From a virus (lineage: Duplodnaviria > Heunggongvirae > Uroviricota > Caudoviricetes): 25,386 nucleotides of DNA. Below are positions 6,516-23,736 of this stretch, piece after piece (position 1 is the stretch's first letter; every line of letters starts with the position of its first letter). Both the position numbers and the translations under genes were made by a program. The stretch lies in the IMG/VR virus record IMGVR_UViG_2563366849_000003; one strand, given 5' to 3'. The notes below the pieces were generated by a model that saw only the letters and a list, made by a program, of their open reading frames with translations, was not told the DNA's origin and searched no databases.

Positions 6516-7034
6516 TCACAGGCCGATATTGCGGCGGTGTTGCTCCAGCCGGTCGACGCCGTTCACCTTCTCAATCATGTTGATGGTGTCGATTTCGACC
6601 AGCTCCTTACCGTCCATCGTCAGCCGGAAATAGGTGCAGACCACGGAGATTTTCGACTCGGTGTCTTCTCCCTGTTTGCCCTCGCCGGTGTCGATTTCTT
6701 TCTGACGTCCACGCATGACCACCTCGACGGCCACCGTTTCGCCGGTATCGTCGCGCTGGTAAGAGCCTGCAAAACGAATCGGTACGGCATCCACACCGGT
6801 TGCGGCGTAAAGCTCCCAGATAACCGAATCCGGGAAGCCCCCGAGCGACCACTCCATTGACAGCGCATCGTCATCAAGGCCGAGGTCTACCGGTGCGCTT
6901 CCGTTCATCCCCGCACCGCGATAGTTTTCGAGTTTACGGGTCAGTTTTGGCAGCGTGACGGACTTTGCAACGCCCTGATAGCTGTAGCCGTTCAGAAAGA
7001 CGTTCATTAACTTGAGTTTGCGCGGCATTGCCAT
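6516..7034 (-). CDS. FII: Major tail tube protein (P2 gpFII)
   Basis: 172-aa ORF (P2 FII is 172 aa), directly downstream of FI. Confidence 0.9.
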   Translation of the reverse strand: MAMPRKLKLMNVFLNGYSYQGVAKSVTLPKLTRKLENYRGAGMNGSAPVDLGLDDDALSMEWSLGGFPDSVIWELYAATGVDAVPIRFAGSYQRDDTGETVAVEVVMRGRQKEIDTGEGKQGEDTESKISVVCTYFRLTMDGKELVEIDTINMIEKVNGVDRLEQHRRNIGL

Positions 7035-7046
7035 CGGTCAGGCTCC

Positions 7047-8237
7047 TTAATTGCTGTTAACCGAAGTGACCAGATTTGCCAGGTATTTATCGGTAATACG
7101 CTGGCGCAGGGTCAGGTTTTCGAGAGGAGGCACCGGGGTATAGTCGTAGTCGATATACAGTTTTCCGGCCTTGAGGGTTTCCGCATCGTTGGATTCTTCG
7201 CTGAACCAGCAGGTCGCATCCACGATATAGCCGTTTGTTTTCAGCTCACGGAATTTGGCATTGATGCCGTCAACGATGTCGCGAATCAGCGTTGCGGTGA
7301 TAGGCTTGTCCACCGCCCACATATGCGCCTCAGCCATCGTGTCGGCCAGCACCTGCGCGGTGCGGGTGTAGTTTTCAAAGAGGAACAGCGGGTCATCAGA
7401 GCAGGTACGGTTACCCCAGAAGCGGAAACCGTCGCGGCAAATCAGCGTAGTGACGCCTGACTCGTTAAGCAGGTCAGCATCGGTGCCGGACTCCTGCAAA
7501 TCCCAGAATACAGAGGCACTGATGCCGGTAACACCGTTTACCCCGACATTGGACAGCGTTTTATGCCAGCCCTGCTCCTGGTCGATTTTAGCGCGCAGAC
7601 CCAGCGCACGGGCGGTGGCATACGCGGTGGCGGTGGTGCTGCTGACCGTATCCCATGCGAGGAAATCCGGCCAGATGACCATCAGCTCACGCTGGCTGAA
7701 ATTCTGGCGGTAGGCTTTCACCTCGGAAATGGTTTTACAGCCCCATGCGCTGATATACCCGAAAGCGCGCAGCTTCTGACAGACTGATGCCAGTGCAACA
7801 GCCACCTCTTTGGTGTCCAGTCCCGGCACGCCGAGAATACGCGGTTTAACACCGGTTACCGACTCTGCCGCCAGCAGGGCTTTCAGTCCGGTATACTGAC
7901 CGTTTTCGTCAGTGGTGCCGATGATATTGGAAACGGTCTGCGCGAGTTTCGTTTCTTCGTCGTCGCCGGTGCCGTCTTCCACACGCACGACAACGGTGAC
8001 CGGTTTTGACTGGTCGGCGATGGCCTGCAACGATGCCGCCAGCGTGCCTTTTTTACCAGCCTTTGCAATTGCGCTCTGCACATTGGTAATCAGCACCGGT
8101 TTATTGATGGGGAAGGTTTCCGCATCCGCATCGCTGGCCGTGCAGACCATGCCGACAATGGCTGTGGATACGGTGGAAATGACGCGGGTGCCGTCGTTAA
8201 TCTCCAGCACCTGCACGCCGTGATGATAGTCACTCAT
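7047..8237 (-). CDS. FI: Contractile tail sheath protein (P2 gpFI)
   Basis: 396-aa ORF (P2 FI is 396 aa); first gene of the FI-FII-E-T-U-D late operon. Confidence 0.9.
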   Translation of the reverse strand: MSDYHHGVQVLEINDGTRVISTVSTAIVGMVCTASDADAETFPINKPVLITNVQSAIAKAGKKGTLAASLQAIADQSKPVTVVVRVEDGTGDDEETKLAQTVSNIIGTTDENGQYTGLKALLAAESVTGVKPRILGVPGLDTKEVAVALASVCQKLRAFGYISAWGCKTISEVKAYRQNFSQRELMVIWPDFLAWDTVSSTTATAYATARALGLRAKIDQEQGWHKTLSNVGVNGVTGISASVFWDLQESGTDADLLNESGVTTLICRDGFRFWGNRTCSDDPLFLFENYTRTAQVLADTMAEAHMWAVDKPITATLIRDIVDGINAKFRELKTNGYIVDATCWFSEESNDAETLKAGKLYIDYDYTPVPPLENLTLRQRITDKYLANLVTSVNSN

Positions 8238-8330
8238 CCGTTTAACTCCGTGGTTAATGGGTGCAACTATTTTCCGTTGGGTAGTACATGAGACGCTATT
8301 TGACCTGGCTGGTCAGTGGATGAAACAACA

Positions 8331-8360
8331 GATAAAGAAAAGGCGGGCAATCTGCCCGCC
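8331..8360 (-). terminator. Intrinsic terminator-like hairpin (GGCGGGCA-loop-TGCCCGCC) followed by a T-run on the minus strand
   Basis: Perfect 8-bp GC-rich stem at 8342..8349 and 8353..8360 with TTTTCTTTATC following on the minus strand. It lies downstream of the 230-aa cargo gene and next to the late-promoter box. Confidence 0.5.
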
Positions 8361-8378
8361 TGTCCTGATTTGTACACA
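8361..8378 (-). promoter_or_regulatory. Candidate Ogr-dependent late promoter element (TGT-N12-ACA) for the FI operon (PF)
   Basis: TGTCCTGATTTGTACACA fits the P2/P4 late-promoter activator box TGT-N12-ACA, located about 125 bp upstream of the FI start. The -10 element is not confidently identified. Confidence 0.5.
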
Positions 8379-8496
8379 CTCATTTTCCGACTGACAATTT
8401 ACATAGCCAAAACGCTATCAAATCTGACTGCCTGTTTTGAGCGAAGAGGAACCTGAGATTGTGGTATGCTAATTTATGGGGAGCAGGTCAATTGTA

Positions 8497-9189
8497 TTAG
8501 TTATCTTTTTGCCTTTCTTTATCCCATTTCTTTACAGTGGTCTGATACCACTCTTCACGTGCTCGTTGTTCCTCTGCTCTGTCACTTGAATTATAGTTGT
8601 CTGTTTTAATTTTTTTGCTTCCCTGGGAAATCGGCCTCCAGTCTTCTCTAATCTTTTTCATCTGCTCAGCTATCTGTGTCATTGGACTCCTTGCACCTAA
8701 GTAGCTAACCCCCTCGAAAGAAGCCATATCATAAGAATACTCATTCCGCTCTCTTTCAGTTGAGCCCGGCTGTTTAGACCAGCTAATACTAACAGAATAA
8801 ACTTGATCTTTAATCTGGTCATACTTACAAAGACTGCTGTTGAGGGAATGGCCGTTTTTCAATACGCTAACCTTGCTAAATGGTATACCTTTATTTTTTC
8901 TATGTTCTGCATTAACCAGTGGGGGATTAAATCCGACTTCAATATCATAGGCTGGGGCATTTCCGGTATTAGCAATATTGATATCAAAATAAAAAGCAGC
9001 CCAAGAATTTGGTTCAAGAGTCACAACGACATGAGGTTGAACTGATGCGTCAACCATCCTTTTTGTCTCGTCTGCTAATAGCCTTGTTACTCTCCACAAG
9101 AAAAATGTAGCAACTGCTGTTAGCAATGCTGCCAAAGCGGAGATAAGTGTACTTACTGTGTTTATATGCTCTGCGATAAATTCGATCAT
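8497..9189 (-). CDS. Hypothetical membrane-anchored protein (230 aa), cargo gene at the P2 Z/fun position
   Basis: ATG with AAGGA Shine-Dalgarno; predicted N-terminal transmembrane helix (TVSTLISALAALLTAVATFFLW) and a charged C-terminal tail; AT-rich codon usage unlike the flanking tail genes. No family recognised. Confidence 0.6.
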   Translation of the reverse strand: MIEFIAEHINTVSTLISALAALLTAVATFFLWRVTRLLADETKRMVDASVQPHVVVTLEPNSWAAFYFDINIANTGNAPAYDIEVGFNPPLVNAEHRKNKGIPFSKVSVLKNGHSLNSSLCKYDQIKDQVYSVSISWSKQPGSTERERNEYSYDMASFEGVSYLGARSPMTQIAEQMKKIREDWRPISQGSKKIKTDNYNSSDRAEEQRAREEWYQTTVKKWDKERQKDN

Positions 9190-9680
9190 GAGTTGTCCTT
9201 GGGGGCGTACTAATTGTTTTCAATACTAAAATAGCGCCGGGCTTGAAAAATTGCACACTTATGGTTCGATTTACCTCAACAGTTAAGGCTTCTACTTCCC
9301 CCGTGCACCTCACCCAGCCCAAGACTGTATGAGGTCTGACAAAGAACTTCCTGACACTTGAAAACGAGGCAACGGCTAAGGTTTCTCGTAGGGCAAGGAT
9401 TGAATACGAAGCCTGTATATTGCTCCGCAAACGCTGCTGAGGGCAGTTTAAATGTTGGGCGTTTATGTAGCCTTTCACTCACCAGCATGAGTTCAATGTC
9501 TGTGAGTTACCGACAACAATATAAAGAGGGTGGCATCATCATATATCCAAGCTAGAGTCAAATCCTCCAACTGGTTTTATGATCAGTATCAATTGTTTGA
9601 TTATTGAACGTTTACGAAGCAGCACGGGAGCCATATAACTAATGGGCAGGTATAAGCCTGTATCACGAGGAATCAGTAAA

Positions 9681-9860
9681 ATGGCTGATGATAAGACCAA
9701 AATCGGTACCCCTGACAATGATTTAATAAGTATCAAACAGGATTACGAGAGACGTGATTGGGCTGAAAAGTTTGGAGTTAGCGAGGCCAAACTTGTTCAA
9801 GCCGTACAGGCTGTAGGTCATTCGGCTAAGAAAGTACAGGCATGGCTTAAAGACCATTAA
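9681..9860 (+). CDS. Small DUF3606-like protein (59 aa; an alternative upstream start at 9642 gives 72 aa)
   Basis: MADDKTKIGTPDNDL...DYERRDWAEKFGVSEAKLVQAVQAVG... resembles the DUF3606 pattern as I recall it (MADDK-type N-terminus, conserved Y and W). GAGGA Shine-Dalgarno 9 nt upstream of the 9681 ATG; intrinsic terminator immediately downstream. Confidence 0.55.
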   Translation: MADDKTKIGTPDNDLISIKQDYERRDWAEKFGVSEAKLVQAVQAVGHSAKKVQAWLKDH

Positions 9861-9865
9861 TATAT

Positions 9866-9889
9866 GAGCGCCTTTCTAGGCGCTTTTTT
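9866..9889 (+). terminator. Intrinsic terminator after the DUF3606-like gene
   Basis: Hairpin AGCGCC-TTTCTA-GGCGCT followed by TTTTTTC. Confidence 0.6.
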
Positions 9890-9912
9890 CTTTGTCCTTT
9901 GGGAGATGATTT

Positions 9913-10191
9913 ATGGCTAATAATTTATTTATTACTTACGACCTCATTAAAACGAAAGATTATGCGGCTGTGTATGATGCAATTAAATCTTTAGGAAATT
10001 GGGCTTTAACAACTGAATCGAACTGGTATGTTAACTGTAGTTACTCTGCCGAGGATGCAGCCAAAATTGTGAGGGCGGTCATGGATAGTGATGATAAGCT
10101 TATTGTTGTAGACGCAACCAATAACTCAGCTTATTGGTACAATCTCTCAGATGAAGTTAGTAACCAAATTCTGACTGAGTGGAACAAGTAA
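9913..10191 (+). CDS. Hypothetical small protein (92 aa)
   Basis: ORF with GGGAGA Shine-Dalgarno 7 nt upstream of the ATG and a strong intrinsic terminator directly after the stop. No family recognised. Confidence 0.5.
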   Translation: MANNLFITYDLIKTKDYAAVYDAIKSLGNWALTTESNWYVNCSYSAEDAAKIVRAVMDSDDKLIVVDATNNSAYWYNLSDEVSNQILTEWNK

Positions 10192-10193
10192 TT

Positions 10194-10220
10194 AAAGGGG
10201 GTGGATAGCCCCCTTTAATT
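10194..10220 (+). terminator. Intrinsic terminator after the 92-aa gene
   Basis: AAAGGGGG-TGGATAG-CCCCCTTT hairpin followed by an AT-rich stretch. Confidence 0.65.
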
Positions 10221-10410
10221 CAGAAACTATCATGATTGAAACATTAAATATACTGGGTTAATTCTTTCATCCTTGCTCCCTTGCTATATGTCCTGAAAGC
10301 GTCCTTTTTAGCCTTCTGCTCAGTATGTCCGGTAATGGCACAGAGCGGACTGCCAGATTAGGCTTTACTCTGTGCCATAGATATGTAAGCTCCCACCAGA
10401 GCTCATACAC

Positions 10411-10938
10411 TTATTGCGGCATTTCCGGCCATTCGGGATTTGCAGGATCCACACGACTGACCAGAACGCTGTAGCGTTCCCATGCTTCCAGTCGTGTGCG
10501 TTCCTCGTCTGTTGCCATATTCAGCCTGACAGCGCGTTCCAGCGGTTGGATGACTGATTCAGCTTCGGAAAGCAATGCGGCCTTTTGTGATTCGGCCTGT
10601 TGTTGTTGCTCGTCTGCCGTATAAATCCGTTTAACCACAGCTCCGTCCCTAAACATCCACTTACCGGAATCATCAGCGCAGCGGTTGGCTGTAATATCTG
10701 GAACCTCAACGACGCTATAACCTTCAGGGTTAAGCGTGGAGGCATCTTTGGTGATGGCGACAATAATATTATTTGCATCGTAAACAATCTTTATTGTGTC
10801 TGGCTGAAAGTTTTTCACTTCCTCATACCAGTTTTTTCCGTCTTCGGACCATAACCAGATAACATCAAAATTCTTTGTTAGCTGATATTGTTCTTTTGTT
10901 TTTGGATTTCCAGACTTAATATTTTTTAAATGCTGCAT
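10411..10938 (-). CDS. G: Tail fiber assembly protein (P2 gpG)
   Basis: 175-aa ORF (P2 G is 175 aa) immediately downstream of H. Confidence 0.85.
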
Positions 10939-10941
10939 AAA

Positions 10942-13077
10942 TTACACCTGTGCGACGTTATACCATGTGCCATTGATGTATTTTTGTATTGGTCTGAATA
11001 CAGCCGGATCATCGCCATCAACAGAGCCAATAATGCCAAGCCCCGTAATTGCATGGCCTGATTTTTCATACATCACGCCTTTTTGCATAGTTTGAACAAC
11101 ACGCGTGCCAAGTCTGACATCTCTCACATAGCGTGAGTCAAAATTGCCATAATTTCCGGGAATAATTTGCGCACCGCAAAGCCAGTTACCGTTATTGTCC
11201 ATGTACGCCTTACCATCGGTGCCATTGGCTGTCCTTGAGTTATTAATCATGTAGATGCCAAATTGCTTATTTCCCAGACCGCCAATCATAAATTTGCGGT
11301 CGGCATGGTCCTGACGAAGTAATGCCTGCGCACCATCGGTGGATACCGCATTGCGTCCCAAAATAACATTCTGGTCACGCATATTAATCCACATGCCGGT
11401 ACTACTGTTAATTGCAAAACGGTTTGCAAATATATCCCCTGTAACATCAAGACCATGCCCCATGCTTATCCGACCAGTTCTAAGATTAAGCGTAAAGGGG
11501 CGTAGTGGCCCTATATCACCATTTTCTCCCTCGTTCTCTCGTGTAGGGATGATATGCAGGCATTCTTCAGAACGGCGAAAAATGGCACCAAAAGATGAAT
11601 TAAATATCCTCAGTGCATTGACTGTCGATATTTTTACTTCACTGCTGAAAAGGGCTTTAACAAGAACAGACAAAGCATCCCATTTAAGATTCATCAGGTC
11701 TTTTGTTGTGGTGCTTTGTTTGCTTCTCCATTTGAAATATTCATTGCCGTTGTCGCCTGTTTCAAACCACATGTATGAATCAGTGTCACCATCGGCATCA
11801 TTTTTAAATCCAATCTTCGCCCAGTCAGTATTTCGAATCCAGGCAAGGATTGAGTCATTTTCAAAAGTAAGCCCACCGGACAAAGTATCGCCATTTTTTT
11901 GCACGGCGTTACCAGCCCTGTTTACCGTTTCCTGTAAACCGAGGTATTCGATAACAGCGGCAACGGTCGATTTCGCAAGAATATCCCGCCCGACTTCTGT
12001 CAGGGTTGCCAGACTGGCAACATCATTCCCCGTAAAATACGGAAACCTGTCTGCTGCAGTAGCAAGCCCGGCCAGCGCCGTCAGGGTGGCATCTTTCGGT
12101 TGCTTACCCGCAAGCGCGTTAGTCATGGTGGTCGCAAAATTCGGGTCGTTGCCCAGCGCCGCCGCCAGCTCGTTCAGCGTATTCAGTGCGTCAGGCGACG
12201 AGTCTACAAGGGCGGCAATCGCGGCCATCACATAAGCCGTACTTGCGATCTGAGTATTATTAGTACCTTTTGGCGCAGTTGGCGTCGTTGGCGTTCCGGT
12301 CAGTGCAGGGCTGTTTAATGGCGCTTTCTTGTTCGTTTCATCCATTACCGTCTTAACGGCTTTTGGTGTTGCGGCGAGCGTTTCAGACATGCTGTTGGTC
12401 GCACTACTTAGCTGGACAAGACCTTTTCGCGCTGTGGTAGCGTCCTGTGCGGTATATTTCCCGTTAGCAAGGTCATATGCGGCCTTAACCGCTTTCGGCG
12501 TTGCGGCCAGTGTTTCAGACGTGCTGTTGGTCGCACTGCTTAACTGAGTAAAACCTTTTGCGGTCAGCGAGGCGTCCGGGTGACGTCGTGACTGTTCGTG
12601 CTCTGCAATTTTGTCATCAACGTAATCCTGTGTCGCCATCACCGTTGTGGTGTCAATGGTCAGCTCCACTGAGGCCACACTGCTGACGATGATGACCATG
12701 CGGCAGGTCTGCGAACGCCCTGAGCCTTCGGCAAGGGCTGGCTTATAACTTTCGGCCATGTTCGCCACGGCAATTAGCGTTCCCGCATCATCGTACAGGC
12801 CAAGTTCACGCATCCAGAAACCGCCCACCTCCGGCGGAATAACCAGCTCTGCGATAATATAATTACTGTTTCGTTTGTCCTGGCTGATTTTGTTCAGCGC
12901 ATGTCGCCAGACTTCGTGGATAAGCCCGGTCTGTCCGGCATCCGGGACAGGCAATTTACCACCGCCATCCCCGACGGCCATCGTGGTAATGTTGACCTTC
13001 CGCCCTCCCGGCGCGGTTGCCGCTGCCAGCTTTGCTGCACCGGCAGTGGTGATAACGGTTCTGAATTTTGTGCTCAT
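10942..13077 (-). CDS. H: Tail fiber protein (P2 gpH family)
   Basis: 711-aa ORF between I and G with a conserved N-terminal region, internal tandem repeats (LSSATNSxSETLAATPKAVK twice) and a variable C-terminal receptor-binding part. Confidence 0.88.
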   Translation of the reverse strand: MSTKFRTVITTAGAAKLAAATAPGGRKVNITTMAVGDGGGKLPVPDAGQTGLIHEVWRHALNKISQDKRNSNYIIAELVIPPEVGGFWMRELGLYDDAGTLIAVANMAESYKPALAEGSGRSQTCRMVIIVSSVASVELTIDTTTVMATQDYVDDKIAEHEQSRRHPDASLTAKGFTQLSSATNSTSETLAATPKAVKAAYDLANGKYTAQDATTARKGLVQLSSATNSMSETLAATPKAVKTVMDETNKKAPLNSPALTGTPTTPTAPKGTNNTQIASTAYVMAAIAALVDSSPDALNTLNELAAALGNDPNFATTMTNALAGKQPKDATLTALAGLATAADRFPYFTGNDVASLATLTEVGRDILAKSTVAAVIEYLGLQETVNRAGNAVQKNGDTLSGGLTFENDSILAWIRNTDWAKIGFKNDADGDTDSYMWFETGDNGNEYFKWRSKQSTTTKDLMNLKWDALSVLVKALFSSEVKISTVNALRIFNSSFGAIFRRSEECLHIIPTRENEGENGDIGPLRPFTLNLRTGRISMGHGLDVTGDIFANRFAINSSTGMWINMRDQNVILGRNAVSTDGAQALLRQDHADRKFMIGGLGNKQFGIYMINNSRTANGTDGKAYMDNNGNWLCGAQIIPGNYGNFDSRYVRDVRLGTRVVQTMQKGVMYEKSGHAITGLGIIGSVDGDDPAVFRPIQKYINGTWYNVAQV
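12352..12570. repeat. Imperfect tandem direct repeat (about 133-bp period, 2 copies) inside the tail-fiber gene H
   Basis: CTTAACGGCTTTTGGTGTTGCGGCGAGCGTTTCAGACATGCTGTTGGTCGCACT... recurs as CTTAACCGCTTTCGGCGTTGCGGCCAGTGTTTCAGACGTGCTGTTGGTCGCACT...; it encodes the repeated fibre motif. Confidence 0.7.
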
Positions 13078-14523: not shown

Positions 14524-14871
14524 TCAACTCACAGGGATGGTTAACGAAAGTGGCTGGCCGGTGTCGTTGTGCTGGCCGGTCAAAGTGACAGTCATTCGCC
14601 CGTCAAAACTGCGCTCAGTGGTGACGGATGACAGGGTGACGCGGGGTTCCCATTTCAGCACCGCCATGTAACAGGCGACCTTAATCTGCAACTCAAGCGC
14701 CAGAGTCTGCGGCTGGTCAATCATTGACGCCAGCAACGAGCCGTAATCACGACGCATCACCCGTGAGCCGACCGGTGTGCGCAGGATATCGCCGATACTC
14801 TGGCTGATATGCTCAAGGTCAGTGACAGTCAGGCCATCACTGCGATTCATTCCGAGATAACGCGCTGTCAT
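14524..14871 (-). CDS. W: Baseplate protein W (P2 gpW, gp25-like)
   Basis: 115-aa ORF (P2 gpW is 115 aa). Confidence 0.88.
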   Translation of the reverse strand: MTARYLGMNRSDGLTVTDLEHISQSIGDILRTPVGSRVMRRDYGSLLASMIDQPQTLALELQIKVACYMAVLKWEPRVTLSSVTTERSFDGRMTVTLTGQHNDTGQPLSLTIPVS

Positions 14872-15872
14872 AGAGGACTCCCGGTTGTGCCGCCGCTGTC
14901 GCCGGGGTGTTTATGGGTATGCAGTACCTTCCCGTTTGATGAGAGTTCACCGCCGGTGTGTTCAATGTTGCCGCGCATCGTCCCGCCCTTCTGCACTTCC
15001 AGCGTGCCGGTAATCAGCCTGTTGGTGCAGACCACCTCCGGTGTGTCCAGGGTAACGCGGGTTGATGCTTTCACCGTGACCACCGGCACCGTGGCAGTAA
15101 CAGAATCAGAAGCCGTCACGCTGGCCGTTTTAATTCCGCTTACCGTGAGTGCACTGGTTTCGGGTTCATACTCAATCACCGCCCCGTCAGGGAAACGGAT
15201 ATGCAGGGCATCCGCCGACGCAGACGGCGCGGGGTTATCACCGGAATAAATCCCCGGCAGAACGAACGCTGTGTCGAGTTCACCGCCCACGGCCAGAATC
15301 AGCACCTGTTCCCCCTCGGAAGGTGCCCACCACGTGCGCGAACGTCCGGCGCGATGGGTCAGCCACTGAAGCCAGTCGGTGCACATGCCGCCGGTCTGCA
15401 CACGGCAGCGACCGGCGTTAAGGTCGGTTTCGACGATAATGCCGGTGCGTATCATGTTGCGCAGTGCGCGCGCGAGTTTCGCACTGGCATCCACACCGCG
15501 ATAACGTTCATAAAGCGACGCGGTCGCCATCGCACACACGGCGCGCTCGTAGTAAAAAACTTTGATGCTTTCACCGTCGATGTCGTCCGCCGGGACGTCC
15601 GCCAGACGCGTAAAACCGGCGGCAATTTTCTGTTCGCGGTACTCGTACAGCTCCGCATTCGTCTCCGCCATGCCTGACTTGATGGCCTCACGCAGACGGG
15701 CGGGGGCGACGGTCTGCTCAAGGCGCATACGTTCCCGGACGCGCTTCGGGTCGATATCGGGAAAAAAGAACGTGTTTTTAATCACCGGCTCGTCGCCTGC
15801 CGGTTGCGGGATGACCACCGTACCCTCACCGGACACGGGAGCCTCCTTTCGCGGAATAATCAGCGTCATCAT
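14868..15872 (-). CDS. In-frame fusion ORF: head completion protein L (N-terminal part) joined to baseplate spike protein V (C-terminal part)
   Basis: Single 354-aa ORF (first Met at 15932; probable start MMTLIIPRK at 15872 with a GAGGTGG Shine-Dalgarno). The N-terminus reads like P2 gpL, the C-terminus (...GNIEHTGGELSSNGKVLHTHKHPGDSGGTTGSPL) like P2 gpV. In P2, L and V are separated by X, Y, K, lysA/B/C, R and S, all absent here. The junction is inferred near 15450..15530. Confidence 0.6.
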   Translation of the reverse strand: MMTLIIPRKEAPVSGEGTVVIPQPAGDEPVIKNTFFFPDIDPKRVRERMRLEQTVAPARLREAIKSGMAETNAELYEYREQKIAAGFTRLADVPADDIDGESIKVFYYERAVCAMATASLYERYRGVDASAKLARALRNMIRTGIIVETDLNAGRCRVQTGGMCTDWLQWLTHRAGRSRTWWAPSEGEQVLILAVGGELDTAFVLPGIYSGDNPAPSASADALHIRFPDGAVIEYEPETSALTVSGIKTASVTASDSVTATVPVVTVKASTRVTLDTPEVVCTNRLITGTLEVQKGGTMRGNIEHTGGELSSNGKVLHTHKHPGDSGGTTGSPL

Positions 15873-15971
15873 GACCACCTCTGAAAAGTCGGGCGGTGGA
15901 CGCCGGTGCAGTGTCAGGTGATTCACCCTCACTGACCGGCGTGCCGCCCTGGCGCGGGGCGCATTCGGTTG

Positions 15972-21737: not shown

Positions 21738-22310
21738 TTATTTTTTCATATTGTATATAAAGTCACAAATATGCACCAGTGATAATCTGTTATAGTTTTC
21801 CAATGTAAACACAGGATAATTATAGCAAATTTCAGGAGGAGGCAATTGCGAGCGAACAGTTGTTTTTTTAGCTGATTGCTGCCTCCTCGATAATTTACTT
21901 ATTACACCAATGTAATCCACTTTTCTTGACAAATGCCCATGTAAATTCAATACAGAATATAGCCACTTACAAAAATGAATGCCAGTAACTACCTGTTTAG
22001 CCGCACCATTTGAGTTATAAGATTTGAGATCTATTACGATAAAATAATCTACGTCTTTGTGCGACGTAACAAAAATTCCATCACAAACAGAGCATACTCC
22101 TGGTAAAGCAGAAGATTTTAAAAATTTCCAGACTGGTTTAGAAATACTATTAGAATCTAGCGAAAATCCATAGATACCATTTCCGTTTACCAGTAATTTT
22201 TTATTTGTAGCACCTGGGTTCTCTTCGCATACAACCCAGCATTCCTGCTCTCGCATTAATTGAAATGTAGGATCGATGCAACTTTGTATTACATTGATAA
22301 TATTACTCAT
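21738..22310 (-). CDS. Hypothetical Cys/His-rich protein (190 aa), partner of the upstream ATPase; candidate effector
   Basis: The start ATG (22310..22308) overlaps the last codons of the ATPase gene (GATGAGTAA), indicating translational coupling. AT-rich. Contains CxxxC (res 24-28), CxxC (73-76), EE (29-30) and DVD (86-88) motifs. No family confidently recognised. Confidence 0.6.
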   Translation of the reverse strand: MSNIINVIQSCIDPTFQLMREQECWVVCEENPGATNKKLLVNGNGIYGFSLDSNSISKPVWKFLKSSALPGVCSVCDGIFVTSHKDVDYFIVIDLKSYNSNGAAKQVVTGIHFCKWLYSVLNLHGHLSRKVDYIGVISKLSRRQQSAKKTTVRSQLPPPEICYNYPVFTLENYNRLSLVHICDFIYNMKK

Positions 22311-23736
22311 CTACATCCTCACTATCAGAGGCATTCTCCACCAAGGAGTAATATATTTCATCATTATCGTCATTAATGGCATTAATTACTTCATCAAAAG
22401 TTACAGCATTAATCCCTTCATTTGACTTCTGCATTTCATTGACTGAGCCATTATCAAATAGATACGCAGCGACTAGGTTAGAGTCTAAAATTGAGTCGAT
22501 GCTAATCCCTTGCTTCTGCATGATAGCGTTTCGTTTTTCAATCATATTTTCAGAAACGCCATGCAACATAATCAAGCTATTGATTTCTTTCACAAAATAA
22601 TCACTGTGAGTACTAACAATAACCCGAATACCAGAGTTAACTAGCTTTGCTAAAAATCTTGCAATTACTCGCTGATTTGACGGGTGTAAATTTAACTCGG
22701 GTTCGTCAATCATTAAAATATCACCAGTTTTTGCTTGGTGCTCTAAATAAAACCACAGGCCAAACAAACTTTTAACAGTGGATGACGATAAATGAAGTTC
22801 AATTTTACTTGCAGGTGTCTTACCTTTCTTATACGTTGAAAAATAAATCTGCCCTTCAGGATCAACTGAATATTTTCCTGAAATTATTTTTTTTACTTCT
22901 TCTGCTAATTTATGAAATTGGCCATTTTTATTTTTCCTATTAACCTTAATTTCATTAAGCCAGTCTATGTAATTTGCTATAGGAGCAGAATACTTAGACT
23001 TCATTACATCCATTAATAGTGAGTTCAGATCGAACTGTTCTTTTGAGGCGTGGTGCAATAACGCAGTTCTTCTGGAACTTAATTCATTGAAAAAAAGGTG
23101 CAAGCCATTTCTTTCTGCGGGAATTAAAAATGCTGGGCTTTCATCATACTCTATCTTTAATAACTGACTTAGAGTTAAGTTTATAAACCCATCAATTCTG
23201 GGGAAAGCAGAATCTAGCAGCGTCATTTGTATGATATTGCTATTTTTATCTTTGGATAATAGCATTACTTCTTTTTTGCCGGTTCCTATGACGAGGCTAA
23301 CATCCAATTTTTTTTCATAAACACTTGATACTAATGATTCTTCATCTATAACCCAGTCAAATGTTGAATTAGAAAAAATTTCCTTATCATTAGTGTTGAA
23401 TACATCTTTAAGCATTAAAGATGAATCTTTATTAAATTCTCTTTTGATTAACGTAAAATTATCTTTTATCCACTCAATTACATCTAATTCAAACTTACCA
23501 TTTTCACGAAGAGTTTTGGCAAAATTTGCAACTTGAGGCAATTTTAAAGATGGTGATGGCATATTTAGGAAGCCATATAACCCATACATAACCCATGTTT
23601 TACCAGTATTATTTTTTCCGCATAAAAGCGTTAAAGGTTTTGCATTAATTTCTCCTGTAGAGATACACCCAATGTTTTTAAATGAAAATCTCCATGATGC
23701 TAATTTTTTTACGTTAATTTCGCTTTGCTTTTTCAT
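22303..23736 (-). CDS. ABC/OLD-type P-loop ATPase (AAA_15/AAA_21-like), 477 aa; candidate anti-phage defence ATPase
   Basis: Walker A GKNNTGKT (res 40-47), signature-like LSSSTVKS (316-323), Walker B/D-loop DILMIDEPELNLHP (339-352), H-loop STHS (375-378), acidic C-terminal tail; AAGGAA Shine-Dalgarno; AT-rich. Confidence 0.7.
   Translation of the reverse strand: MKKQSEINVKKLASWRFSFKNIGCISTGEINAKPLTLLCGKNNTGKTWVMYGLYGFLNMPSPSLKLPQVANFAKTLRENGKFELDVIEWIKDNFTLIKREFNKDSSLMLKDVFNTNDKEIFSNSTFDWVIDEESLVSSVYEKKLDVSLVIGTGKKEVMLLSKDKNSNIIQMTLLDSAFPRIDGFINLTLSQLLKIEYDESPAFLIPAERNGLHLFFNELSSRRTALLHHASKEQFDLNSLLMDVMKSKYSAPIANYIDWLNEIKVNRKNKNGQFHKLAEEVKKIISGKYSVDPEGQIYFSTYKKGKTPASKIELHLSSSTVKSLFGLWFYLEHQAKTGDILMIDEPELNLHPSNQRVIARFLAKLVNSGIRVIVSTHSDYFVKEINSLIMLHGVSENMIEKRNAIMQKQGISIDSILDSNLVAAYLFDNGSVNEMQKSNEGINAVTFDEVINAINDDNDEIYYSLVENASDSEDVDE

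Follow-up and report, generated by a model that had tools for sequence, protein, structure and literature searches.

We have analysed a window of 25,386 nucleotides, the whole stretch of DNA presented above (IMG/VR record IMGVR_UViG_2563366849_000003), which is a P2-like prophage, and we focus on a minus-strand gene at positions 8497-9189 that encodes a protein of 230 amino acids. We propose that this gene is an independently transcribed moron whose product is an inner-membrane-anchored protein that acts against phages on its own, a reading to which we assign a probability of about 45%. The proposal is supported by the location of the gene in a defence hotspot, its stand-alone mobility and sporadic distribution, the predicted topology of the protein and a conserved face of its membrane helix, the neighbouring system DS-46, its DefensePredictor score, and the presence of PD-T4-4 in the same prophage. 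The initial annotation, made from the letters alone, had pointed out that single-gene membrane-anchored proteins at prophage hotspots are frequently abortive-infection or exclusion factors. The hotspot setting, the mobility of the family as a single gene, the DS-46 neighbour and DefensePredictor log-odds of 7.0-8.2 speak for such an interpretation, whereas the picture of a lone gene holds only in part: the family does move without a conserved partner, but here the gene shares a three-gene island with a second transcription unit, which had been missed.

The coding sequence runs from an ATG at 9187-9189 to a stop codon at 8497-8499, precisely the extent and the length given in the initial annotation, and a Shine-Dalgarno-like AAGGA lies 6 nt 5' of the ATG (9196-9200, minus strand), where a ribosome-binding site is also annotated in record AJ512682. 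This open reading frame (ORF) is a real gene and not a chance ORF, because the identical protein is found on at least 1000 contigs, a word-index search returned 234 homologues, a HMMER profile built from 48 homologues retrieved 1,787 representatives of 50%-identity clusters at E<=1e-3 (153 at E<=1e-30), nearly all of them 180-250 residues long and with the same layout, and the ratio of non-synonymous to synonymous substitution rates (dN/dS) is as low as 0.04-0.2 against orthologues of 74-94% nucleotide identity. The gene is thus under strong purifying selection.

The protein belongs to an uncharacterised family. The profile phrog_11802 matches it over its full length (E=3e-147, residues 1-230 of a 230-position profile), PHROG 11802 being a family of unknown function, and RefSeq names the identical protein WP_001572865.1 'DUF8453 domain-containing protein'; membership in DUF8453 is taken from this RefSeq annotation, as the model is missing from the copy of Pfam that was scanned. 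ORF1 of the P2-EC53 Z-region (CAD54906.1, 'putative lysogenic conversion protein') and QDP43518.1 of phage R18C are the same protein, with 99.1-100% identity and the same island and slot. The sequences do not differ in kind, and none of these records, nor those of PHROG 11802 and DUF8453, carries a tested function. The earlier statement that no family is recognisable is therefore right in so far as no family of known function is matched, but PHROG 11802, DUF8453 and GenBank CAD54906 do exist. The scans of Pfam, NCBIfam and PADLOC with the 230-residue protein gave nothing significant. Library matches at noise level (Phe_tRNA-synt_N, E 0.068; TMEM260-like, 0.2; SecE, 0.056; SLATT_4, 0.5) were rejected, as were the matches of a profile search against PDB sequences, which were limited to low-complexity helices (TFAM and designed coiled coils, E>0.1). 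A confident match to a known housekeeping membrane family, which the initial annotation had named as evidence against itself, was not found in the Pfam, NCBIfam, PADLOC or PHROG scans.

The anatomy of the protein was explored by hydropathy, conservation and structure prediction; residue numbers count from Met1, and alignment A1 and the AlphaFold model lack Met1, so that numbers there are one lower. Kyte-Doolittle hydropathy in 19-residue windows reaches its maximum of 2.03-2.05 across residues 12-32 (2.05 for 12-30), with no second hydrophobic segment by this scale over the whole protein, in good agreement with the N-terminal hydrophobic helix previously placed at about residues 12-33. The soluble domain and the highly charged C-terminal tail described with it were likewise borne out, the quoted tail RAEEQRAREEWYQTTVKKWDKERQKDN corresponding to residues 204-230; residues 181-230 contain 13 K/R and 11 D/E. 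AlphaFold2, run with the 48-sequence alignment (mean predicted local distance difference test, pLDDT, of 85; predicted template modelling score, pTM, of 0.56), models residues 3-49 as a single unbroken helix made of the transmembrane (TM) segment and a juxtamembrane extension. The TM helix (residues 12-32; 9094-9156, minus strand) is placed by hydropathy, conservation and positive-inside statistics, and its half predicted to lie in the cytoplasmic leaflet, L23-W32, ranks with the helix extension and the sandwich as the best conserved of the family. In the juxtamembrane part (residues 33-49; 9043-9093, minus strand) we find a stripe formed by T35, L38, T42 and M45 together with the basic residues R33, R36, K43 and R44. 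A seven-strand immunoglobulin (Ig)-like beta-sandwich is predicted to follow (residues 54-154; 8728-9030, minus strand), with the motifs P60-N61-x-W63, N74-T-G76-N77-A and F87-x-P89-P90-L91, the invariant positions being P60-N61-x-W63, D69, N74-x-G76-N77 and F87-x-P89-P90-L91. Beyond the sandwich there is a conserved helix (residues 169-188; 8626-8685, minus strand) with P169, A174 and K178-K179-I-R-E, followed by G190 and D203-R204, and finally a K/E/R-rich C-terminal helix of variable sequence (residues 201-230, modelled over 201-229; 8500-8589, minus strand). The alignment of the farthest relatives, of about 30-37% identity, stops near residue 181. The AlphaFold and Foldseek check recommended in the initial annotation thus delivered a TM helix and a compact domain, but only generic sandwich matches for the latter. 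The best PDB matches in Foldseek were type IV pilin-like, a relationship that was rejected on account of an acidic or neutral, variable N-terminus with no conserved leader, and of a topology in which the sandwich is predicted to be cytoplasmic rather than exported. Neither the Pfam scan nor the fold search revealed an enzymatic, DNA-binding or signalling domain in the protein.

We deduced the topology from 98 aligned relatives that share 24-42% identity with the query. Ahead of the TM helix they have a median of 7 residues and a mean of 0.17 K/R, against a mean of 2.44 K/R in the 15 residues past the helix, and the C-terminal side has the higher count in 91 of the 98 relatives. In some longer members of the family (P0160, P0165, P0170 and P0183) the TM helix is preceded by a signal-peptide-like segment and by a linker, acidic and rich in proline, that is about 70 residues long, an arrangement that suggests a periplasmic extension in these lineages; Pfam finds no domain in the extended variants. 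Because of the K/R bias after the TM helix and the signal-like extensions of the long variants, we predict a bitopic inner-membrane protein with the N-terminus out and the C-terminus in, that is, with a very short periplasmic N-terminus and with the sandwich and the charged helices in the cytoplasm.

The residues T24, T28, L31, T35, L38, T42 and M45, spaced 4-3-4-3-4-3 and flanked by A25, A27 and A39, form a single face of the helix that is conserved throughout the family, and the conservation of residues 14-50 shows a sharp periodicity of 100 degrees (power 294, with a background mostly below 15). This face suggests oligomerisation. In the mechanism that we put forward, the conserved Thr/Leu stripe would promote parallel homo-oligomerisation of the helix into a bundle, and a phage component would be sensed or docked by the cytoplasmic sandwich and the basic helices. 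Once triggered, the bundle would make the inner membrane leaky or depolarised, and the outcome would be abortive infection. Extended to the whole family, DUF8453/PHROG 11802 would represent an uncharacterised class of one-protein immune device, in which the sandwich senses a phage cue and the Thr/Leu-zippered helix breaches the membrane, spread by prophages, integrative and conjugative elements (ICEs) and integrase islands and with no homology to known defence effectors. This wider and more specific statement we hold only tentatively, and regard as rather unlikely as a whole.

The same anatomy can be read as that of a superinfection exclusion factor, an inner-membrane protein that would block the entry of the incoming genome by occupying or altering a host component, without killing the cell. 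Small inner-membrane proteins of prophages are classic exclusion factors, as is the case for T4 Imm, P22 SieA and HK97 gp15, and the 230-residue protein resembles them in being small, prophage-encoded and predicted to lie in the inner membrane. Furthermore, the conserved helix face at the inner leaflet could bind a host membrane protein, and the evidence from the hotspot and the genomic context serves exclusion exactly as it serves an abortive mechanism. However, nearly all of the mass of the protein is predicted to be cytoplasmic, which is less typical of blockers that act on ejection from the periplasmic side; no sequence or profile similarity to known exclusion proteins appeared in the Pfam, PADLOC and PHROG scans; and a family that spans alpha-, beta- and gamma-proteobacteria would require a host partner that is very widely conserved. 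We consider exclusion an unlikely explanation.

Returning to our proposal of a stand-alone membrane-anchored defence protein, the first line of genomic evidence is the slot that the gene occupies. The island that carries it is variable DNA of foreign composition between the tail genes G and FI, and therefore cargo of the P2 Z/fun hotspot: 2.2 kb at 8240-10410, with a guanine-plus-cytosine (GC) content of about 37-45% against about 51-60% in the flanks, which are the conserved tail sheath gene FI (7047-8237, minus strand) and the conserved gene G for the tail-fibre assembly protein (10411-10938, minus strand). The G/FI locus is the second defence hotspot of P2-like phages and contains three of the validated systems of Vassallo et al. 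(PMC9519451), and in a 2026 survey the tail-gene hotspot holds 16% of P2 defence systems (PMC13586616). In P2 itself the slot is occupied by fun(Z), whose record carries the note 'cloned gene blocks growth of T5; lysogenic conversion', and in phage 12474III by a SMEK-domain gene. DS-27 is the validated unit SMEK ('SMEK domain-containing protein'; PMC13092281), its identity with the 12474III gene being unconfirmed. The locus also exchanges tail-fibre modules and invertases.

The second line of evidence comes from the same island, which comprises three genes in two divergent units, the 230-residue gene on the minus strand and, on the plus strand, a DUF3606 gene (ORF at 9642-9860, RefSeq start at 9681) and a gene for a 92-residue protein (9913-10191). 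The accessions annotated for these two divergent genes, WP_001406733.1 (DUF3606) and WP_000002748.1, are those of the unit 'RMRT' in Table S6 of the DefensePredictor paper, where it is listed as defensive=TRUE and named DS-46 (PMC13092281). The two-gene unit alone (coordinates 62985-63495) was recorded as defensive in MG1655, and it was the sole protector among 24 low-scoring remote-homology controls, with a model score of -4.5 (PMC13092281). The 92-residue protein shows a match to PHROG 1090 and faint Cas2-like matches. On the same ECOR contig as DS-46, 492 bp off and on the opposite strand, lies WP_042002648.1, a hypothetical protein of 230 residues, which we equate with the window protein on the basis of its length, its position and the shared neighbours. 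It is listed in Table S5 as a 'Predicted novel defense gene' with a mean log-odds of 6.99 (min 3.49, max 8.64; the strict DefensePredictor cut-off is 4), with no Foldseek hit and, as the only HHblits match, a DRT protein at 16% coverage; its cluster mate WP_032223676.1 reaches a log-odds of 8.24 in Table S10 (PMC13092281).

The proximity of DS-46 raises the question of whether the 230-residue protein is a third, auxiliary component of that system, acting as its membrane effector or modulator. In complete E. coli genomes one unit is seldom found without the other (the 230-residue gene in 105, DS-46 in 102 and the whole island in 99), and the three-gene island is present at about 94% identity in Pantoea leporis (L022) and in the loci L111 and L112, with an insertion of about 310 bp between the two divergent units, near window position 9415. 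Yet the 230-residue gene has the DS-46 genes beside it only where its identity is 92% or higher, in E. coli and Pantoea leporis, and loci of 90% identity or less lack them, bar one marginal match to the 92-residue protein; the two units diverge, each with a terminator of its own; and the two-gene DS-46 is defensive by itself. The marginal match is found in Pseudomonas machongensis (L054; 7688-7912, plus strand), where a relative of the 92-residue protein (29% identity, E=4e-5) lies directly upstream of a 44%-identical homologue of the 230-residue protein, and it is the sole hint of linkage outside the E. coli/Pantoea island. The co-occurrence in E. coli reflects one island that has recently spread. 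Since distant loci lack DS-46 and DS-46 protects when cloned alone, we regard the 230-residue gene as independent of DS-46, and an auxiliary role as very unlikely.

The arrangement of the island is consistent with a gene that has its own transcription. A hairpin resembling an intrinsic terminator (8341-8361, minus strand; 9 pairs, 7 of them G-C, then a T run) lies 3' of the 230-residue gene and before FI. A second hairpin (10194-10215, minus strand) is located between the 92-residue gene and G, P2 having an analogous terminator of the V operon; it probably ends the V-W-J-I-H-G operon and, from the opposite side, the 92-residue gene, thus insulating the island. An upstream block of about 140 nt (9190-9327, minus strand) moves with the gene, with 84-87% identity in Kosakonia and in a metagenomic contig, and probably holds the promoter and 5' untranslated region of the gene. 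An Rfam scan of the island gave nothing above threshold. Altogether the gene looks like an insulated 'moron'. By its position between the tail operons and its common orientation with them, the gene might instead be thought to serve the phage life cycle, in lysis timing or in the assembly of tail or particle at the membrane. Against such a role, about 90% of the E. coli genomes with a match to the island ends do not have it, P2 and most P2-like phages lack it, it occurs in ICEs and integrase islands as well, it is bracketed by terminators, and it has been kept in a prophage whose lysis cassette appears to be deleted; we judge this explanation to be the least credible of all. A holin or spanin was rejected on similar grounds, as the gene is located between tail operons and not in a lysis cassette, is terminator-bracketed, occurs in non-phage elements and is retained despite the lysis deletion.

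The third line of evidence for the defence reading is the distribution of the family. The whole island is 99.3-99.8% identical to the 'proviral Z-region' of P2-EC53 (AJ512682), to phage R18C and to 99 complete E. coli genomes. The 230-residue gene is found in 105 of 5,426 complete E. coli genomes, and the island as query matches 1,029 E. coli genomes, in most cases through its conserved ends alone (median identity band 90-95%) and with differing cargo, so that the gene fills roughly one tenth of the occupied slots. The family is present in 72 species-level genomes, all of them Pseudomonadota from the alpha-, beta- and gamma-proteobacteria (among them Enterobacterales, Pseudomonas, Luteimonas, Burkholderiales, Caulobacterales, Sphingomonadales, Rhodobacterales and Hyphomicrobiales), and in 25 viral contigs; it is nearly absent from plasmids (2 Pseudomonas megaplasmids) and, apart from R18C and P2-EC53, from isolated phage genomes. 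All-against-all clustering of the ORFs within 8 kb of the gene in 72 loci revealed no conserved partner, the commonest neighbour families being serine recombinases (resolvases), tyrosine integrases and LysR regulators, with 8 of the 72 loci each. The settings include a Xanthomonas island with integrase and insertion sequences (IS), a Klebsiella integrase island, the cargo of a Pectobacterium ICE beside TraI/TraG, the point where the tail module of a lambda-like prophage ends, a remnant that adjoins a P4-like satellite, and a resolvase with a DEAD helicase, which is DpdF in the Kosakonia locus with the same neighbourhood. In 63 loci, the raw occurrences of defence genes within 3 kb comprise DpdF/DpdC, ThsB, MzaA, NsnA, RmrT, PD-T4-2_A, the UG29 reverse transcriptase (DRT UG29), CapP, type I restriction-modification subunits, type II methylases, a SIR2 protein and AbiD, housekeeping genes being found there too; GmrSD_N and AbiJ_NTD4 genes are also among the neighbours of family members. 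The gene moves alone among prophages, an ICE and integrase islands, and often near defence genes.

A widespread 'partial' homologue in E. coli (L015-L018, 5001-5573; about 190-220 residues, about 70% identity) begins its homology at ADETKRM. We examined it as a possible soluble variant and rejected that reading in favour of a 5'-truncated remnant without the TM helix. IS elements and an AbiJ_NTD4 gene are its neighbours, and the primase of a P4-like satellite is adjacent.

Several observations weigh against the reading of a stand-alone defence protein. PADLOC-DB v2.0.0 gave 0 families at E<=1 for the protein, which thus belongs to no known or candidate system of that database. The structure search returned no specific fold relative, only generic Ig-like sandwiches. 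WP_042002648, WP_032223676 and WP_001572865 are missing from Tables S6 and S8, which cover 118 cloned units, and none of them is listed among the validated systems DS-1 to DS-46, the accessions occurring only in the prediction tables S5 and S10 (PMC13092281). Genomic context is part of what DefensePredictor relies on, and overall no more than 45% of the predictions that were cloned proved valid (PMC13092281). Beyond those prediction tables we found no publication on P2-EC53, DUF8453 or the protein accessions. A simple sigma-70 scan of the island detected no consensus promoter, and the -10 element annotated in AJ512682 maps to about 9518-9523, beyond the approximately 140 nt that travel with the gene. 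Oligomerisation and pore formation are proposed solely from the conservation pattern, and a host membrane protein, or the soluble domain of the protein itself, could equally be the partner of the conserved face. The defence neighbours listed above are raw occurrences, and solitary relatives are found between housekeeping genes, namely ribBA/rodA in a sphingomonad and tgt-yajC-secD in Pseudomonas.

These solitary relatives fit a non-defence accessory, that is, a membrane-anchored adaptor or regulator of host physiology (lysogenic conversion, envelope or stress) carried for the fitness of the host. The GenBank label of a putative lysogenic conversion protein, the mixed purpose of the Z/fun slot, which also receives tail-fibre modules and invertases, and the failure of about half of the DefensePredictor predictions on validation would agree with such a role. 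The sporadic distribution and the strong association with recombinases, prophages and ICEs argue against it, as do the recurring defence neighbours, the validated system in the same island, and a protein with no enzymatic, DNA-binding or signalling domain in it; an accessory of this kind appears to us improbable to much the same degree as exclusion.

The remainder of the window has the gene order of a P2-like prophage, with ogr, D, U, T, E, the tube gene FII (6516-7034), FI, G, the fibre gene H (10942-13077), I, J and W, and after W the small terminase, capsid, scaffold, large terminase and portal genes. In the old/tin hotspot, adjacent to the portal gene, we located PD-T4-4 (21738-22310 and 22303-23736, both minus strand), whose A subunit is a 477-residue AAA_15 ATPase (PADLOC E=2e-112) and whose B subunit has 190 residues (E=1e-15). 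The cargo of the prophage therefore consists of one known system (PD-T4-4), one validated system (DS-46) and one predicted system, the 230-residue protein. An ORF of 354 residues (14868-15932, minus strand) fuses the head-completion protein gpL (Phage_GPL) to the baseplate spike gpV, with the junction at about 15477, and the two halves are at separate places in 119 of 119 matching phage records. Because of this fusion, what lay between L and V, namely the lysis cassette and the R/S genes, appears to have been deleted; the prophage is probably defective, with its defence cargo kept. AJ512682 further places a 'right' and a 'left' inverted repeat at the two borders of the island (window 8363-8453 and 10321-10433), for which an alignment at the mapped coordinates gave scattered identity only and no convincing pair. 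In the same record (L001, 1435-1646) the DUF3606 gene appears to be broken across frames, probably by a sequencing error, which may explain why only ORF1 was annotated.

The candidacy of the protein for defence has already been published by DefensePredictor, and its family is already in public records. The present study contributes the anatomy of the protein (its topology, fold and conserved stripe), the stand-alone mobility of the gene and its independence from DS-46. If our proposal is true, the family would be a widespread (1,787 clusters at 50% identity) and very compact single-gene membrane effector, and the 2.2-kb P2 island would constitute a mini defence island of two systems, in a prophage whose other P2 hotspot holds PD-T4-4. 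The candidate is also an easy and cheap experimental target, with 693 bp, a native upstream region and a conserved helix face for point mutants.

Among the known systems, Fun(Z) of P2 resembles the 230-residue protein in its G/FI position and in being a non-essential lysogenic-conversion gene, the cloned gene blocking T5; however, it has 528 residues, its gene and the tail genes are on different strands, and BLASTP detects no similarity between it and the 230-residue protein (E=1.7). DS-46 shares the same 2.2-kb island, at 492 bp and in divergent orientation, and is experimentally defensive, but its proteins are unrelated and soluble and are unlinked to the 230-residue family outside the island. 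Cap15, an effector of the cyclic-oligonucleotide-based anti-phage signalling system (CBASS), consists of two TM helices and a beta-barrel, and lactococcal AbiP of an N-terminal anchor and a cytoplasmic domain. The likeness to Cap15 and AbiP thus lies in the N-terminal membrane anchor, the compact cytoplasmic beta domain and the small size, whereas the Pfam and PADLOC scans gave no sequence or profile match to either, and the 230-residue protein has one TM helix, no cyclase or signalling partner, and an Ig-like sandwich in place of the Cap15 barrel. We therefore rejected a CBASS-type TM effector, there being no conserved neighbour in the 72 loci, no PADLOC or Pfam match, and a generic sandwich fold. 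Should the protein prove to be the stand-alone defence factor that we propose, its single membrane helix joined to a cytoplasmic Ig-like sandwich would be a fold combination not seen in known defence systems.

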